Shown: positions 1-54,419, counted from the first letter of the stretch. The stretch: 64,000 bases of DNA from a virus (IMGVR_UViG_3300005512_000003); one strand, 5' to 3'. The notes: generated from the letters alone by a model not told the origin. A program made the numbers and translations.

Positions 1-3000
1 ATTCCAAAAGAATCTCTCAATGATTTAAAAGGAAATGGTGGCATTTTTAACACTGCTGAGACAACTTATAATAATAATACCCCGAGTGATGACTTGGGCA
101 TATATCAAGTAACTCCCACAAAAGCAGTTGTAAAGGGATATGATGTAGAAACAATCAGTTCTACCTTTGTAGATTTTCCAAAACCAAGAACTACTAAAAC
201 GGTTACAAATCAAAGAACAAATTACGTAACTGGTCCAACATACGTTCTCAATAGAGTTCATGGTGCTCCTACTATTGGTGTCGGCACCGACTTTGTTGTT
301 CATTTGATGGATTCTCGTAAGGGAGTATCTGGTATTGCATCTGCAGGAAAAGAAATCGGACTTGCAAGAGTATATGATTTTGTTCTTGAAAGTGGATCAT
401 ATGACACTACTGTACCAGATCTGAATGAATATGACATTTCTCTGTATGATATTCAAACTTACACAGAAGTAACGCTAAATCAGGCAACAACACTGACTGT
501 TCCAACTCACGTAAGAGGAAAATCTAGCGGAGCAACAGGTTTTCTTAGATATGATGTTTCTAGTGGCACTCTTCTTACACTTTATAATACCAAAGGCAAG
601 TTTAAGGATGGAGAGTCCTTTATCTTTGATGGGATTGATGACACCAGAATATCAGTTGCAACAACATCATATGGCACTGAAAAAGTAAAATCAATTTTTG
701 CAAGGGTTGGCACAGCAGGAACTTTTAATGCTGATGTTAAACCATCAACGCTTGCTAACGTTGGTTTTGTTAGTATTACTGCTGCATCTGGTGGAATAAG
801 CACTGTTACTACAACAGACTTCAACTTTATTGGTATTGCAACTGAAGGAAGCACAGTTTCTTTTACTAATGCAGGTCTTTCAACTGCAAGTTTTGCTAGA
901 GTTAGTACAGTTTCTAAACACTCTCTGACGATTGCTGGAGTGACTACAGTCATAGGTATTAATGAAGGTGGTCTCCCTGGAACTGCAATCCAACCAGCGG
1001 ACTTCAAAGTTTTATATTCTCCATTCCAGTCTTCTACTGACAATACATTATATACTGTTCTTCCAAAGAAGAATATTTCTAAAGTTGACATCAACAGCTC
1101 TTCTTTGATTATTAGAAAAAAGTTCTCAGTGACTGTTGTAAGCAATGAAACAAATACTATCCAAGCACCTAGCGGAGAAACTTTCCTGCCATTTGACGAG
1201 GAAAGATATTTGTTTATGAGGGATGATGGTAGTGTAGAAGAGTTGACAGCAGATAAGTTTATTTTTAATCCAACAAATACTACATTAAAAATTGAAGGTT
1301 TGTCAAACGCTACTGGTGGGGCACAACTTTTTGCAACTCTCACCAAAGCGCAACCATCATCAAAAACTAAGATTAGAAAGAAAGTTAATGTCTTAAATGT
1401 TAATCTTTCATCTAGTGCTAGTAGTGGTATTGGAACAACTACATTCGATGATGGGTTAACATTTGGTACATATCCATACGGAACAAGAGTTCAAGATAAG
1501 GACATTTGTCTTTTAAAAGCAGATGTAACTAAACTTTGGGGAGTATTTGAGTCTGATAACACTGCAAATGCAGATTTGCCCAACATTGCACTTACAGTTA
1601 TCAGTGGCACCAATGCCAAAACAAGTGACTTATTGATTGGTGAAGAGTTTGAAGGTCAAACTAGTGGAGCACTTGGCATTTATTGTGAAAAACTCTCAGA
1701 TAGTAAGATAAGTTATATTCGTCTGAATCAGGAGAGATTCCAAGAAGGGGAAACCATCAAGTTTAAAGATACTGGAGTAACTGCAACCGCTGAGATTCTT
1801 GGCAGAGGCGATAACAACATTACTCAAAACTATGTTCTTGATAATGGTCAGAGATCTACCATTTATGACTTTGGTAGAATAACAAGAAAGGACCTTAAAC
1901 TTGCTCCATCAAAGAGACTGAAAATTGTTTTTGAAACTGCTGAGTTTGAATCTTCTGATCGTGGGGATATTATAACAGTCAATAGTTACAATGCATTTGA
2001 CTATAAAAACATTCCAAGAGTAAATGGAGTTCCAAACTCTGATATTTTAGATATTAGACCTAGATCAACTTCTGTAGGAGTAGTCACTACTGGAGACTTA
2101 TCACCATTTGAATTTAGAGGAAGATCAATCAATGCTACTGGAAACTCTGTTCCAAACATTCTTGCTAGTGATGAGCAAATCCTTATCGATTATTCATACT
2201 ACTTACCAAGAATAGACAGAATCTTCTTAACAAAAGATGGAGTATTCCAGTTAAATCAAGGAACTCCAGCAGAAACTCCACAGTTACCAGATTCCATTGA
2301 TGATGGTATTGAAGTTGCAAGAGCATCCTTGCCTGCATATCTTTATGATATCAATGATGTAGACATCAATATCTTTGACTATAAAAGATACAAGATGTCC
2401 GATATCAATAAACTTGATAAGAGACTGAGCAATCTTGAACTGTTTACAGCACTTTCTCTGCTGGAAGTAGATACTGCAAATCTTCCAATCAAAGATAATG
2501 ATGGACTGATTAGATTTAAATCTGGATTCTTTGTTGATGATTTCTCTTCTACAAAAGCACAGAGAAAAGAAACTCTTGTAAAGAACAGTATTGATGTTAT
2601 CAATAGTGAACTGAGACCTGCACCATACACAACCGAGATAGATCTTCTTTTGGGAAGTGAGTCATCGATTGGAATCAATGGACCAGCTGATCCATTTGTA
2701 GATACAGAGTTTGTTTCTGATCTACTCGGATCGAATATTAAGAAAACTGGTCAGTTAGTAACACTGGATTATACAGAAGTTACTGAGATTGAGCAACCCT
2801 ATGCTACCAGACAAGAAAAAGTTTCTCCAGTAAGAACTTCTTACTATGGTGGTACTATTGAACTGACACCTTCTTCGGATGTTTGGGTTGATCAGACTAA
2901 AGTCAATGCTAGAAGTAATGAATACCTTAGTAACTATACAGAATCTCCAGAACAACTTGGCGTTTCCGACAATGACAAGCAGGCAGGATTTAACCCTGTA

Positions 3001-43138: not shown

Positions 43139-43146
43139 TATTTATA
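43139..43146 (-). promoter_or_regulatory. T4 late promoter TATAAATA for the HNH gene
   Basis: + strand TATTTATA, about 20 nt upstream of the HNH ATG. Confidence 0.75.
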
Positions 43147-49945: not shown

Positions 49946-50404
49946 ATGTTTTTTGAAAAAGTGAGTCTGGTCACTGGTGGGTTCGATCCCATTCACAGTG
50001 GACATATCCGTTATTTTGAACGTGCTAAAGATTATTCTGACTACCTTGTAGTTGGTCTGAATGGTGACCCTTGGTTGAAACGAAAGAAAGGACAATACTT
50101 TCAGTGTTGGACTGAACGAGCAGACATTGTTCGTCATTTGAATATGGTTGATGCTGTTGTCTCTTGGGATGACGCTGATGACTCTGCAAATGGTGCTATT
50201 GCAAAGTGTTTGGAGATTGCAGAGACTGTTGTGTTTTGCAATGGTGGTGATCGAGCACAGGGAAATACACCTGAACTAGAAGCATATAAAGATAATCCCC
50301 GAGTGGTGTTTGAATGGGGTGTTGGTGGTAATGATAAAATGAATAGCAGTTCGTGGATTCTCCACGGATACTTTGAGCGTCAACGTAAACTATTGGGTAT
50401 TTGA
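49946..50404 (+). CDS. Cytidylyl/adenylyltransferase (RfaE-II/TagD-like)
   Basis: TGGFDPIHSGH (HxGH), VGLN.D..L..KKG, NGGDR, SSSWIL. Confidence 0.88.
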   Translation: MFFEKVSLVTGGFDPIHSGHIRYFERAKDYSDYLVVGLNGDPWLKRKKGQYFQCWTERADIVRHLNMVDAVVSWDDADDSANGAIAKCLEIAETVVFCNGGDRAQGNTPELEAYKDNPRVVFEWGVGGNDKMNSSSWILHGYFERQRKLLGI

Positions 50405-50405
50405 T

Positions 50406-51413
50406 ATGGACCTTTTAAAAGAGATTGTAAAAGAAATCGGAGATGACTACACAAAACTCGCAGCAGACATCGACGACTCCGAATCATATGTTGACACGGG
50501 TTCGTACATTTTTAACGGACTCGTATCAGGTAGTATCTTTGGTGGTGTATCTGGGAATAAGATTACTGCCATTGCTGGCGAGTCTAGCACTGGAAAAACT
50601 TTCTTCAGTCTTGCTGTCGTCAAGAACTTCCTTGATTCTAACCCTGACGGCATGTGTCTATATTTTGACACTGAAGCCGCTGTTAACAAGGCTCTACTCA
50701 CAGATCGTGGGTTAGACCTTGAGAGAACTGTAGTTGTAAATGTTGTTACAGTTGAGGAGTTCCGTAGCAAGGCACTCAAAGCAGTAGATATATACTTGAA
50801 AAAACCTGAAGATGAACGCAAACCACTTATGTTTGTGCTAGACTCTTTAGGGATGCTTTCCACTGAGAAAGAGATTACTGACGCACTAAATGACAAACAA
50901 GTTAGGGACATGACTAAATCCCAACTTATCAAAGGTGCCTTCCGTATGCTTACTCTCAAGTTGGGTCAAGCAAATATTCCAATGATCGTTACGAATCATA
51001 CCTACGATGTCATCGGCGCTTACGTTCCAACTAAAGAAATGGGAGGAGGTAGTGGTCTCAAATATGCCGCTTCTACAATCATTTATCTTAGCAAAAAGAA
51101 AGAGAAGGATGGAACAGAGATCGTCGGAAATCTTATCAAGGCAAAGACTGCTAAGTCGCGTTTAAGTAAGGAGAACAAAGATGTTACGGTGCGTCTGTAT
51201 TACGATGAGCGCGGTCTTGATCGTTACTATGGTCTTCTTGAACTCGGTGAGATTGGCGGACTTTGGAAAAACGTTGCTGGTCGATATGAGATAAATGGTA
51301 AGAAGGTCTATGCAAAACAGATCTTGAAAGAACCAGAAACTTACTTCACTGAAGAAGTGATGCAACAACTAGATGAAATTGCAAGGAAGGAGTTTTCCTA
51401 TGGAGAAGGTTGA
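50406..51413 (+). CDS. uvsX: Recombinase UvsX
   Basis: AGESSTGKTF, FDTE, LDSLGML, MGGG.GLKYAAS; ATG at 50406. Confidence 0.96.
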   Translation: MDLLKEIVKEIGDDYTKLAADIDDSESYVDTGSYIFNGLVSGSIFGGVSGNKITAIAGESSTGKTFFSLAVVKNFLDSNPDGMCLYFDTEAAVNKALLTDRGLDLERTVVVNVVTVEEFRSKALKAVDIYLKKPEDERKPLMFVLDSLGMLSTEKEITDALNDKQVRDMTKSQLIKGAFRMLTLKLGQANIPMIVTNHTYDVIGAYVPTKEMGGGSGLKYAASTIIYLSKKKEKDGTEIVGNLIKAKTAKSRLSKENKDVTVRLYYDERGLDRYYGLLELGEIGGLWKNVAGRYEINGKKVYAKQILKEPETYFTEEVMQQLDEIARKEFSYGEG

Positions 51414-52731
51414 GTTTCTAATCCTTAGAAACCTTTTATATAATGAGGAATATCTCCGAAAGGTAATCCCTTTTATTAAATCTGAATACTTTGAGAATCC
51501 AAACCAAAAGGTTGTATTTGAAGAGATCCAATCTTTTGTCGATCAGTACAATGAACTTCCAACTAAGGAAGTTTTAAGTATTGAGATTGAGAATAGAAAA
51601 GATGTCAATGAATCTTCTTTTAAAGAACTCATTGACATGGTGTCATCTTTGGATGATGAACCTACTGATCTACAGTGGGTTACTGATACCACTGAGAAGT
51701 GGTGTCGTGATCGTGCCATTTATTTGGCACTGATGGAGTCAATCAGCATTGCTGACGGTCAAGATGAAAAGAAGAATCGGGATGCTATTCCTAGCATTCT
51801 TTCTGATGCTCTTGGCGTGAGTTTTGACAATAACGTTGGACACGACTATCTTCAAGATTACGAGGCACGATATGAGGTATATCACAGAAAGGAGGAGACG
51901 ATTCCTTTTGACCTTGAATACTTTAACAAGATCACAAAAGGTGGTCTGGTTAATAAAAGTCTCAATATCGCTCTTGCTGGTACGGGCGTCGGAAAGTCTC
52001 TATTCATGTGCCATGTGGCTGCTTCCTGCTTACTTCAAGGAAAGAATGTACTCTATATCACACTTGAAATGGCAGAGGAAAGAATTGCTGAACGTATTGA
52101 CGCAAACCTCCTCGATGTAAACATTCAGGAGATTGTTGATCTGCCAAAGATGATGTTTGAAACTAAGGTAAATAATCTTGCCAAGAAAACTCAAGGCACC
52201 TTGATTATCAAGGAGTATCCAACAGCGAGCGCACACAGTGGACACTTTAGGGCACTTCTTAACGAACTTGCACTTAAGAAGTCATTTAGACCTGATATTA
52301 TTTTCATTGATTACCTTAATATATGTGCTTCCTCCCGCTATCGCCAGGGTGGCACTGTCAATTCATATAGCTATATTAAGGCTATTGCAGAAGAGCTTAG
52401 AGGATTGGCTGTTGAAGCAAACGTCCCTATCGTATCTGCCACGCAGACCACTCGTTCGGGGTATTGCTTGGACTTGAAAACACAAGTTCAAACACCGCAA
52501 GGACTGAAAGATATTTCTAATATTCAAGTTGGGGATTTAGTGCTTTCTAATAATGGTTATAATGAAGTATTGAATGTCTTTCCTAAAACAAAAAAGAAAT
52601 CTTATAGGATTACTTTGGAAGATGGTAAAGAAATCATTTGTAGTGAAGAGCACTTGTTCCCGACTGAAAATGGTGAGGTGAATATCAAAGGGGGTTTAAA
52701 AGAAGGTATATGTCTTTATGTTAAGGAATAG
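51400..52731 (+). CDS. g41: Replicative helicase gp41 N-extein (355 aa) fused to split-intein N-fragment (88 aa)
   Basis: AGTGVGKS, IKEYPT, IDYLNI, SATQTTRSGY, then C1-LDLKTQV...; stop at 52731. Confidence 0.96.
   Translation: MEKVEFLILRNLLYNEEYLRKVIPFIKSEYFENPNQKVVFEEIQSFVDQYNELPTKEVLSIEIENRKDVNESSFKELIDMVSSLDDEPTDLQWVTDTTEKWCRDRAIYLALMESISIADGQDEKKNRDAIPSILSDALGVSFDNNVGHDYLQDYEARYEVYHRKEETIPFDLEYFNKITKGGLVNKSLNIALAGTGVGKSLFMCHVAASCLLQGKNVLYITLEMAEERIAERIDANLLDVNIQEIVDLPKMMFETKVNNLAKKTQGTLIIKEYPTASAHSGHFRALLNELALKKSFRPDIIFIDYLNICASSRYRQGGTVNSYSYIKAIAEELRGLAVEANVPIVSATQTTRSGYCLDLKTQVQTPQGLKDISNIQVGDLVLSNNGYNEVLNVFPKTKKKSYRITLEDGKEIICSEEHLFPTENGEVNIKGGLKEGICLYVKE
52465..52728 (+). mobile_element. 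Split intein N-fragment, Gp41-1-type
   Basis: Cys1 CLDLKTQV; block B I.CSEEHLF; 88 aa ending LYVKE. Confidence 0.95.
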
Positions 52732-52736
52732 TGTGT

Positions 52737-52776
52737 GTAAGTTATACTTCTTATAAATAATAGTAGTATAACTTAC
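52737..52776 (+). promoter_or_regulatory. Late promoter TATAAATA inside a 12-bp inverted repeat
   Basis: GTAAGTTATACT (52737-48), TATAAATA (52752-59), AGTATAACTTAC (52765-76); ATG at 52781. Confidence 0.85.
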
Positions 52777-52780
52777 TGAT

Positions 52781-53545
52781 ATGAAAGTAAAGATTTATCT
52801 AATTACCAACACAGCAGTAAATCCACATATGTATTATGTTGGACTGACTAAAAATGAATTGGACAGAAGATTACAAGAACATATTACTCTTGGAAAGCAC
52901 GAAGGTAATAAACTTCTGTCTGATGCTATTATTGAATATGGTAAAAGAAATTTTACTATTGAAGTGGTGGAGGAAGTTGATGAAAGTGAAGCAAGAATGA
53001 AAGAAGATTATTATATCCGTAAATATAAATCTCATTATATGGATGGATGTGGATATAATATGAGATATGAAACTTGTAATTATGAAAAACATTATCACGG
53101 AGCAAATCAAGAACAGATAGAAGAAAATATTAAAAATGGAAGAGTGTGGAATTATGGAATAAGTTTTTCTCCACAATCAAAAGAGAAAATGAGAAAAACT
53201 AAAAAACATAGATACTCTCTTGGTCTTTATAAAAAGTTTAATACAAATCACTCACAAGAAACAAAAGATAAAATTGCTGAAAGTAAGAGAGGTCAAAAAC
53301 TAACCAAACAGCATAGAGATAATATTGCAAAATCTTCTGTTGGTAGAACTTGGATGTATAATAAAAAAATAAAAGAAAGAAAGTTTATTAAAAAGGAAGA
53401 AGTAAGTTTTTACTTACAAAATGGTTGGGAAAATGGAAAAGGTGTTATTTGGATGAATAATGGTGTAGAATGTATGTGTGCTGATATTTGGGATTATCAA
53501 AGTTTTATTTCTTGTGGATATACTGACGGGAGAATACAAAAATGA
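52781..53545 (+). mobile_element. Free-standing GIY-YIG homing endonuclease with NUMOD3 repeats
   Basis: KIYLITN...YVGLT...R...H, E..YI, GYN, HSQETK.KI; very AT-rich. Confidence 0.92.
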
Positions 53546-53586
53546 CTAAAACACACAAATACAATCAAAATGGAGTTTTGAACTAA

Positions 53587-54012
53587 ATGTTACTAAAAAG
53601 AATTCTAAAAATTGAAGAAATTGGTGAAAGAGAAATGGTAGATATTGAAGTATCTGGAAATCACTTGTTCTATGCGAATGCTATTCTCACACATAATAGT
53701 AGCAGCGATGTTGAGCTTACTGACACTAGTGAGTCCTTTGGTCTCCCTGCTACTGCTGATCTTATGTTTGCCCTTATCTCTACTGAGGAACTTGAATCGC
53801 TTGGACAGATTCTTGTAAAGCAACTTAAGAATAGGTATAACGATCTCAACGTTTATAAGAGGTTTGTCGTTGGCATTGATCGTGCCAAGATGCGTCTGTA
53901 TGATTGTGAGCAGTCTGCTCAAGATGATATGCTTGACAGCACAAAGGAAGAAGAGTATGATTCTGAGGAATCCAACAAGTTTAAGAACAAGTTCGCGGAG
54001 TTGAAGTTTTGA
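53587..54012 (+). CDS. g41: Split-intein C-fragment (37 aa, 53587-53697) fused to gp41 C-extein (104 aa)
   Basis: DIEVSGNHLFYAN.ILTHN|SSSDV, then helicase TSESFGLPATAD and KQLKNRY; SD GGAG. Confidence 0.96.
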   Translation: MLLKRILKIEEIGEREMVDIEVSGNHLFYANAILTHNSSSDVELTDTSESFGLPATADLMFALISTEELESLGQILVKQLKNRYNDLNVYKRFVVGIDRAKMRLYDCEQSAQDDMLDSTKEEEYDSEESNKFKNKFAELKF

Positions 54013-54419
54013 CCAAATCTATTGATTTTGAAAAGTACGAAAAGTTTGTTGATGCTGTTACATCTGAAGCATCCACTGATTTCCTTGCACTCTCTAATCG
54101 TCTTGTGGAACTGGATGAAAAGGGTGCAAATATTGAGCGTCTTCTAACTGCTGGTGTTGGTATCAATGCTGAAGGTGGAGAGTTTCTTGAGATTATCAAG
54201 AAGATGATTTTTCAGGGTAAACCTTGGGATGCTCACAACAAAGAACACCTTGTTATTGAACTTGGTGACCTGATGTGGTATGCTGCTCAAGCATGTATAG
54301 CACTTGGAGTTTCTTTTGATGAGGTGATTGCGCGGAACGTGAAGAAACTGGAAGCACGCTATCCTGGTGGTGCTTTTGACGTTTACTACTCTGAAAATCG
54401 TGCTGAGGGGGACCTGTGA
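54009..54419 (+). CDS. mazG: MazG-like pyrophosphatase
   Basis: AEGGEF.EI.KK, ELGD..WY, N..KL..RYP. Confidence 0.92.
   Translation: MTKSIDFEKYEKFVDAVTSEASTDFLALSNRLVELDEKGANIERLLTAGVGINAEGGEFLEIIKKMIFQGKPWDAHNKEHLVIELGDLMWYAAQACIALGVSFDEVIARNVKKLEARYPGGAFDVYYSENRAEGDL

Follow-up and report, generated by a model that had tools for sequence, protein, structure and literature searches.

The window, as we call the whole 64,000-nucleotide (nt) stretch of viral DNA analysed here (IMGVR_UViG_3300005512_000003), carries gp41, the gene of a DnaB-type replicative helicase, in two separate open reading frames (ORFs). Each ORF bears one half of a naturally split Gp41-1-type intein, a free-standing GIY-YIG endonuclease gene lies between them, and trans-splicing is predicted to rejoin the two helicase halves. 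Because sequence, fold and comparative evidence all support this core reading, we hold it with high confidence; the analysis directly established the anatomy and homology of the locus, the fold, purifying selection and the younger age of the inserted cassette. The original prediction, made from the sequence alone, had described gp41 in two ORFs with intein halves and a GIY-YIG gene between them, and all of these features were found where it had placed them. Cyanophage-like fractured loci of this kind, gp41-1 to gp41-7, were described by Dassa, London, Stoddard, Schueler-Furman and Pietrokovski in 2009, as set out in the sections of that paper on gp41 (PMC2677866), and the structure has been deposited as PDB 6qaz/6riz.

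Two half-genes and a split intein

The locus comprises the following features, with lengths in amino acids (aa) or base pairs (bp).

51373-52731, plus strand: ORF1 in its longest form, likely start ATG 51400; N-extein 355 aa plus IntN 88 aa, 443 aa in all
51400-52464, plus strand: gp41 (DnaB-type replicative helicase) N-extein, 355 aa, C-end ...ATQTTRSGY, recognised by Pfam DnaB_C, PHROG 19 and colinearity with S-SM2
52465-52731, plus strand: IntN, 88 aa (Cys1 ... LYVKE) plus stop, with Cys1 at 52465 and the stop at 52729-52731, recognised by its match to PDB 6qaz
52737-52776, plus strand: hairpin with a 12-bp perfect stem (52737-52748 / 52765-52776) and the T4-type late promoter TATAAATA in its loop (52752-52759)
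52781-53545, plus strand: free-standing GIY-YIG (I-TevI-type) homing endonuclease, 254 aa, supported by TIGR01453, PHROGs, motifs and fold
53542-53586, plus strand: 14-codon mini-ORF, MTKTHKYNQNGVLN and stop, fossil of a 177-187-aa cargo ORF
53587-54012, plus strand: ORF2; IntC 37 aa plus C-extein 104 aa, 141 aa in all
53587-53697, plus strand: IntC, 37 aa (MLLKR...ILTHN), recognised by its match to PDB 6qaz
53698-54012, plus strand: gp41 C-extein, 104 aa plus stop, N-end SSSDVELTD with Ser+1 at 53698, recognised by PHROG 19 and colinearity with S-SM2

ATG 51400 is the likely true start of ORF1, because a Shine-Dalgarno (SD) sequence, AGGAAGGAG, lies 8 nt upstream and because gp41 of phage S-SM2 and most related loci start at the matching position. 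The junctions read ...ATQTTRSGY/CLDLKTQV...LYVKE and stop in ORF1 and MLLKRILKIEEIGEREMVDIEVSGNHLFYANAILTHN/SSSDV in ORF2, and a GGAG lies 11 nt before the IntC ATG. The predicted spliced product measures 355 + 104 = 459 aa; both the start at 51400 and the 459-aa joined product had been proposed beforehand, and both were upheld by the SD position, the S-SM2 alignment and the ORF lengths. Neither half contains a frameshift or an internal stop, and the GC content is 0.27-0.31 in the insert against about 0.40 in its flanks.

The N-extein matched Pfam DnaB_C (1.3e-17) and PHROG 19 (4.4e-110) and is colinear with residues 1-355 of S-SM2 gp41, while the C-extein matched PHROG 19 (1.4e-22) and is colinear from residue 356. 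When joined, the exteins are 80% identical to the intact S-SM2 protein, with a gap-free junction after its residue 355, and the junction context TRSG(Y/F)/S is common to 42 related loci. As aligned on S-SM2 gp41, the insertion point appears to agree with position 356 of P-SSM2 gp41, the insertion point given for gp41-1 to -7 in the relevant section of Dassa et al. 2009 (PMC2677866).

Comparison with the crystallised Gp41-1 intein (6qaz) demonstrated identity at 78 of 88 IntN positions (E-value (E) 2.4e-49) and at 30 of 37 IntC positions (E 1.5e-15), matches far beyond what chance would be expected to give. Over the whole intein, 108 of 125 residues (86%) are identical and 17 are substituted, ten in IntN and seven in IntC; the original prediction had given roughly ten IntN differences from Gp41-1, and the count against 6qaz is exactly ten. 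The nucleophile Cys1 directly follows the N-extein (...RSGY/CLDLKT, 52465), and the SEEH motif (His63), the Asp of DIEV, the His of GNH and the terminal THN/S are all present and align residue for residue with the solved intein. We take SEEH, DIEV, GNH and HN to represent blocks B and F and the C-terminal block of inteins in general. Cys1 and the SEEH histidine are invariant in 34 distinct natural IntN alleles from IMG/VR, as are the DIEV Asp, the NH His and the terminal HN in 21 distinct natural IntC alleles. Most substitutions of the window intein recur in other natural alleles; the best IMG/VR alleles match it at 83 of 88 residues (IntN), 33 of 37 (IntC) and 96% (nuclease), none being identical, and the exact junction sequence of the window had no match in IMG/VR. 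The division into an 88-aa IntN closed by a stop and a 37-aa IntC that has a start codon of its own corresponds to the Gp41-1 type, whose fragment lengths are stated in bioRxiv 10.1101/546465.

The residue that follows the intein separates intein-bearing from intein-less genes. All 39 intein-bearing alleles scored carry Ser at +1 (codon 53698-53700 in the window), whereas 16 alleles of intein-less cyanophage gp41 from about 15 genera (L088, L099-L113) carry Gly in 15 cases and Ala in one. The mature spliced helicase would accordingly contain Ser where its intein-less relatives contain Gly, a Gly-to-Ser change that the intein would impose.

These residues bear on the alternative that the halves are never ligated, the intein pieces being a non-covalent dimerisation module or splicing-dead, so that the helicase would work as two chains, as the split NrdA of phage Aeh1 does without an intein. 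Phage enzymes that are split and yet active without being ligated do exist, Aeh1 NrdA being the case cited in PMC2677866, and the IntC of the window carries a rare D13G substitution in its acidic partner-binding stretch. However, Cys1, the block B His, the block F Asp and His and the terminal His-Asn are all retained and show the invariance described above, and because Ser+1 is universal with the intein and replaced by Gly or Ala without it, the splicing chemistry itself appears to be under selection. Gp41-1, to which the window intein is 86% identical, moreover splices very fast: it is an ultra-fast trans-splicing intein, about 10 times faster than Npu DnaE at 37 °C (PMC10882715). We consider a permanently two-chain helicase very improbable. 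The identity to Gp41-1, together with purifying selection, instead suggests that the window intein is active in trans-splicing.

An RNA-level explanation was weighed in the same way, namely that the insert is a group I or II intron with an endonuclease ORF, removed from the transcript, with only incidental similarity to an intein. Annotators at JGI call relatives of the nuclease 'group I intron endonuclease', a label that is only the family name of TIGR01453. Against this, an Rfam intron search of 51300-54100 returned no group I or group II match at E up to 1, the insert begins and ends on exactly the codons that bound a HINT domain, itself a match to a solved intein at E 2e-49, and purifying selection acts on the protein that the intein sequence encodes. 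The probability of an intron is, in our judgement, close to negligible.

In a fractured gp41 rejoined by its intein, the N-extein-IntN protein (443 aa) and the IntC-C-extein protein (141 aa) would be translated separately, and the intein pieces would assemble into the HINT fold and trans-splice by the class 1 route. This would proceed through an N-S acyl shift at Cys1, attack by Ser+1, cyclisation of Asn37 and an O-N shift, joining Tyr355 to Ser356 to yield the 459-aa helicase.

Compared with the gp41 loci in the corresponding sections of Dassa et al. 2009 (PMC2677866), the window has the same cyanomyovirus gp41 host gene with uvsX upstream, the same 88- and 37-aa pieces and TRSGY/SSSDV flanks, a free-standing endonuclease between the halves, and a hairpin with TATAAATA before the nuclease start. 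It differs from them in 17 of 125 intein residues and in a 41-nt spacer with a fossil in place of the nuclease/IntC overlap. The known picture of how such loci work is unchanged. Few split inteins are used as widely in protein engineering as Gp41-1, yet its definition came from short reads of ocean metagenomes. The window adds a distinct natural allele in a 64-kb phage context, with 17 substitutions, one of which takes a charge out of the acidic stretch by which IntC binds its partner, and thereby offers a variant for kinetic and orthogonality tests.

The nuclease and its hairpin leader

The 254-aa product encoded between the halves matched TIGR01453 (NCBIfam, group I intron endonuclease, I-TevI subfamily) at E 1.9e-16 and 60.8 bits, above the cut-off of 56.05. 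Its PHROG matches ranged from 6e-23 to 1e-10 (PHROG 314, 5.9e-23; PHROG 19446; and PHROG 5123, 'homing endonuclease with GIY-YIG motif', 1.4e-10), and a weak NUMOD3 motif was the sole Pfam match. Residues Y6, Y19, G21, R30, H34, E75 and N93 do not vary among 22 homologues, the most distant of which are 33% identical, and we take them to be the equivalents of the catalytic residues of I-TevI. An AlphaFold (AF2) model had a mean predicted local distance difference test score (pLDDT) of 79.6, with values near 90 in residues 1-30 and of 82-94 in residues 51-90. Its top PDB folds were the I-TevI catalytic domain entries 1mk0 and 1ln0, with probability 1.0, template modelling score (TM, target) 0.76-0.78 and a fold-search E of about 2e-3 that lies just above the 0.001 line of the tool, followed by UvrC GIY-YIG domains. 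Taken together, family, PHROG, motif and fold evidence supports an I-TevI-type GIY-YIG homing endonuclease, and the GIY-YIG assignment of the original prediction was supported on all four counts.

The nuclease shares with I-TevI and TIGR01453 an N-terminal GIY-YIG catalytic domain of about 95 aa with the conserved Tyr, Tyr-x-Gly, Arg, His, Glu and Asn, and with I-TevI a predicted fold that best matches its catalytic domain, followed by a helical linker with a weak NUMOD3-like motif. It differs from I-TevI in standing free between intein halves rather than inside a group I intron, in an identity of only 22-26% over the aligned fold, and in a C-terminal domain (residues about 185-250, confidently modelled) without a family match.

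The 3' arm of the hairpin ends 4 nt before the nuclease ATG, and the RNA folds at -15.8 kcal/mol (z -3.2), a value that none of 200 shuffled sequences equalled. The hairpin spacer is near-invariant across related loci, the window sequence being identical to the commonest variant (15 of 40 loci); the variation is too small for covariation to be assessed, with one compensatory pair present in L019. A hairpin in the 5' untranslated region of the endonuclease gene, often with TATAAATA, is also reported for gp41-1 to -7 in the part of Dassa et al. 2009 that treats it (PMC2677866). For Aeh1 mobE, the account given there is that a late promoter inside a hairpin silences translation of the nuclease on early transcripts.

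This arrangement is consistent with translational control of the I-TevI type. No terminator-like site was found on the plus strand between the gp41 halves, and both halves are probably carried on one read-through early/middle mRNA. On such transcripts the hairpin would probably occlude the nuclease start region, whereas late transcripts starting just after the TATAAATA of the loop would be without the 5' arm and so translatable, as in the I-TevI and Aeh1 mobE models. Aeh1 with its mobE and split nrdA (Gibb and Edgell, as cited in the relevant passage of PMC2677866) resembles the window in that a free-standing homing endonuclease gene splits an essential phage gene and has a late promoter inside a hairpin. 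It differs in that NrdA has no intein, forms a non-covalent complex and is accompanied by an HNH nuclease, whereas the window has a split intein expected to ligate the halves and a GIY-YIG nuclease.

A further copy of TATAAATA in the window lies at 43139-43146 on the minus strand, where there may be a second homing endonuclease under late-promoter control.

Selection on the cassette and its probable mobility

Median DNA identity between related loci and the window is markedly higher in the cassette than around it. The cassette values are 91% for IntN, 100% for the hairpin spacer, 94% for the catalytic half of the nuclease and 89% for IntC, against 72-81% for the exteins, 78% for uvsX and 68% for mazG. 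Synonymous divergence (dS) is 0.40 in IntN, 0.42 in the nuclease and 0.27 in IntC, compared with 1.5 and 1.3 in the exteins, so that the cassette lies 3-5 times below its host gene. The ratio of nonsynonymous to synonymous divergence (dN/dS) is 0.125 in IntN, 0.36 in IntC, 0.165 in the nuclease and 0.08-0.11 in the exteins; every part is under purifying selection. Over ten codons at the N junction, third-position identity climbs from 0.34-0.55 to 0.93; at the C junction it falls from 0.81-0.85 to 0.53. No extended co-conversion tract was seen in the exteins, identity falling within the first ten codons on both sides.

These results demonstrate that the common ancestor of the cassette is much more recent than that of the host genes, as expected from homing between diverged phages. 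Low cassette dS and sharp boundaries thus indicate that the cassette has probably spread horizontally, and they lend indirect support to a putative site-specific cutting of the cassette-less allele. The population comparison provides quantitative support for the 2009 proposal, as put forward in the relevant part of PMC2677866, that intein halves and nuclease spread together between diverged cyanophages. In a mixed infection, the nuclease would be expected to cut intein-less gp41 alleles near the insertion site, and repair would copy the whole cassette (IntN, nuclease and IntC). Any homing event would also have to carry the obligatory Ser+1 codon along.

Synonymous hyperconservation of the homing site in intein-less phages was considered and rejected. 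Synonymous-codon identity beside the site rose to 0.95 with the seven top megablast matches and was 0.43-0.67 in nine phages sampled evenly down the ranking; the apparent hyperconservation was an artefact, because the matches first chosen were the most window-like.

The same selection data speak to a third alternative, in which the locus is a decaying, non-functional helicase gene and another helicase is supplied from elsewhere in the genome or by the host. The gap bears deletion scars, the related locus L045 has a degraded IntC, and the helicase search in this phage was confined to the 64-kb window. Nevertheless, the exteins evolve at the low dN/dS given above, both halves are free of frameshifts and internal stops, and the deletions took cargo only, leaving coding frames and start signals intact. 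A tblastn search of the window found no second gp41 copy, nor does the window contain a second DnaB_C gene. In four relatives of 117-154 kb, estimated to be 56-73% complete, the fractured gene was the only DnaB_C match above the cut-off, and the weak second match was uvsX. We consider decay of the locus very improbable. That replication of the phage depends on trans-splicing is a reasonable inference.

Several points weigh against the picture of a trans-spliced gp41 with a mobile, hairpin-controlled nuclease. Splicing, nuclease cleavage and transcript-dependent control are deduced from close homology and comparative evidence. IntN K48R and IntC K5R were absent from the other alleles collected and IntC D13G was present in one other allele only; the latter drops one acidic residue from the partner-binding stretch and could alter splicing kinetics. 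Conservation of the hairpin may simply reflect the youth of the cassette, and TATAAATA is not enriched in the 64-kb window, with three copies against 2.3 expected. The Pfam GIY-YIG model (PF01541) gave no match to the nuclease at E up to 10, which looks like a limit of model sensitivity, because five homologues of the nuclease do carry precomputed PF01541 matches. Searches of the PDB with the single nuclease sequence and with a profile did not reach I-TevI, which was found by the fold search only. Finally, the second-helicase search covered 64 kb of the window phage, beyond which a second helicase may lie.

Related loci, their cargo and the host phage

Searching IMG/VR with the nuclease retrieved 40 loci, all in the order N-extein, IntN, nuclease, IntC, C-extein, and searching with IntN retrieved at least 52 loci with a Gp41-1-type intein at the same gp41 site. 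In the IntN-query loci the nuclease is of this GIY-YIG family, is a GIY-YIG relative with 35% identity, or is lacking; no other nuclease family was present among them. The window adds a new allele to a family that was described, with its layout, in 2009 and is abundant in public viral metagenome contigs. The novelty once claimed for it, as an allele in full phage context, did not hold, IMG/VR already containing contigs of 117-154 kb with the same arrangement.

Endonuclease swapping relative to the original Gp41-1 locus, raised as a possibility in the original prediction, was rejected. Wherever a Gp41-1-type locus in IMG/VR includes a nuclease, that nuclease is of this GIY-YIG family or its 35%-identical relative, and the hairpin with TATAAATA matches the description of gp41-1 to -7. 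For the original gp41-1 locus, a GIY-YIG nuclease is presumed. Two homologues found only in NCBI were considered as the original Global Ocean Sampling (GOS) gp41-1 locus and discarded, both being from recent metagenome assemblies.

A sister lineage (L083-L085, 2415-4944) has the same layout in a much more distant phage group, with 68% identity in IntN, 35% in the GIY-YIG nuclease and 30% in uvsX. Six loci are without a nuclease: L048 (2597-2831), L050, L051, L052, L082 and L086. In these, the last 60-odd codons of the 187-aa cargo ORF follow directly on the 5' arm of the hairpin. Because that arm is joined to the 3' end of the cargo ORF, the six are derivatives of a single deletion, in which the late promoter, the nuclease gene and the greater part of the cargo gene were lost. 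They correspond to the gp41-7 type as presented in the section of Dassa et al. 2009 concerned (PMC2677866). In L045 (3501-4528) the C-terminus of IntN is altered, the nuclease is missing, and IntC ends in GNHLFDENQTLFIN and a stop, having lost its His-Asn; the locus is either a decaying allele or an assembly chimera near the contig end.

Deposited phage genomes, of which 50,697 were searched, gave a different picture. The insert found nothing by blastn, IntN found by tblastn only inteins below 45% identity in unrelated phages, and the best match to the nuclease came from a Bacillus phage, at 31% identity; the cyanophage gp41 genes of the collection, several hundred in number, match the exteins only. 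That this lineage is frequent in metagenomes and yet missing from the roughly 50,000 phage genomes deposited points to a gap in the diversity of cyanophages in culture.

The space between nuclease and IntC is more compact in the window than in many relatives, which hold one or two extra genes there. The mini-ORF MTKTHKYNQNGVLN comprises the first 10 and last 4 codons of a 177-187-aa ORF (L004, L011-L017), and because it retains both ends of the full cargo ORF, the layout of the window is derived by deletion. The ATG of the mini-ORF shares bases with the nuclease stop (ATGA), and its TAA runs straight into the IntC ATG (TAAATG), leaving a 41-nt spacer from nuclease to IntC without overlap of the two ORFs. 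Translation of the IntC half may be partly coupled to upstream translation through these two junctions, and their preservation would fit selection for such coupling. The nuclease and IntC ORFs overlap in the relatives L008, L009, L010 and L019; Dassa et al. 2009 (PMC2677866) describe 15 loci in which the 3' end of the endonuclease gene extends 6-69 bp into the IntC ORF, a frequent and not a defining feature. An independent deletion of the 177-187-aa ORF, with a different junction, is present in L006, and the ORF is entirely lost in L009 and L019.

Three kinds of cargo were seen in the relatives. The 177-187-aa ORF (L011 4762-5313, L004 1504-2037, L011-L017) has no PHROG match. A 284-aa DNA methyltransferase (PHROG 67, 5.8e-77) lies between the GIY-YIG gene and IntC in L001 (1543-2397), L002 (1505-2359) and L005 (2432-3286). 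An ORF of 114-198 aa, 'MDAQELR...EEWRDSIIG' (PHROG 3708, of unknown function), is found in L020-L037 (for example L032 4692-5135) and always co-occurs with a shorter, 221-aa form of the nuclease.

Some relatives show further breaks in gp41. A second break at the Walker A loop is present in L010 (607-3086) and also in L005, L019, L028, L030 and L040. In L010, piece 1 ends ...LNIALAG/CVHPETKVKIRFRKIS and stop, a 16-aa IntN-like tail; an antisense 222-aa ORF with an HNH motif lies between the pieces (1250-1918, minus strand); and piece 2 begins with about 125 aa ending ...VSSHN/TGVGKS, after which the helicase resumes and runs into the Gp41-1 IntN. This break looks like an atypically split intein, with a very short IntN and a long IntC, and would give a three-piece helicase. 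In L007 (2287-3255), the frame after IntC continues for about 100 unmatched residues to a stop, and a new 181-aa ORF then consists of about 84 unmatched residues followed by the remainder of the C-extein. No PHROG matched either of the extra pieces, and a further insertion, or else a second split element, may interrupt the C-extein.

We propose, tentatively and as something we think rather less likely than otherwise, that the gap between the intein halves is a sheltered, fast-turnover cargo bay whose genes travel with the cassette and are repeatedly gained and lost, and that gp41 is a hotspot at which selfish elements stack, including a second, P-loop intein. Genes landing in the gap would be carried along, since the cassette would move as a whole and expression of the C-terminal helicase half is indispensable.

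The host is a T4-like cyanomyovirus, uncultured or undeposited. Among deposited phages S-SM2 is its closest relative, and the window DNA is about 78% identical to that of S-SM2 over about a quarter of a 21-kb query. The two share the gene order gp43-uvsX-gp41-mazG. Between gp43 and uvsX, at 49946-50404, the window carries a 152-aa ORF with a GGFDPIHSGH motif typical of cytidylyl/adenylyltransferases, and S-SM2 has at this position a 56-aa hypothetical ORF only.

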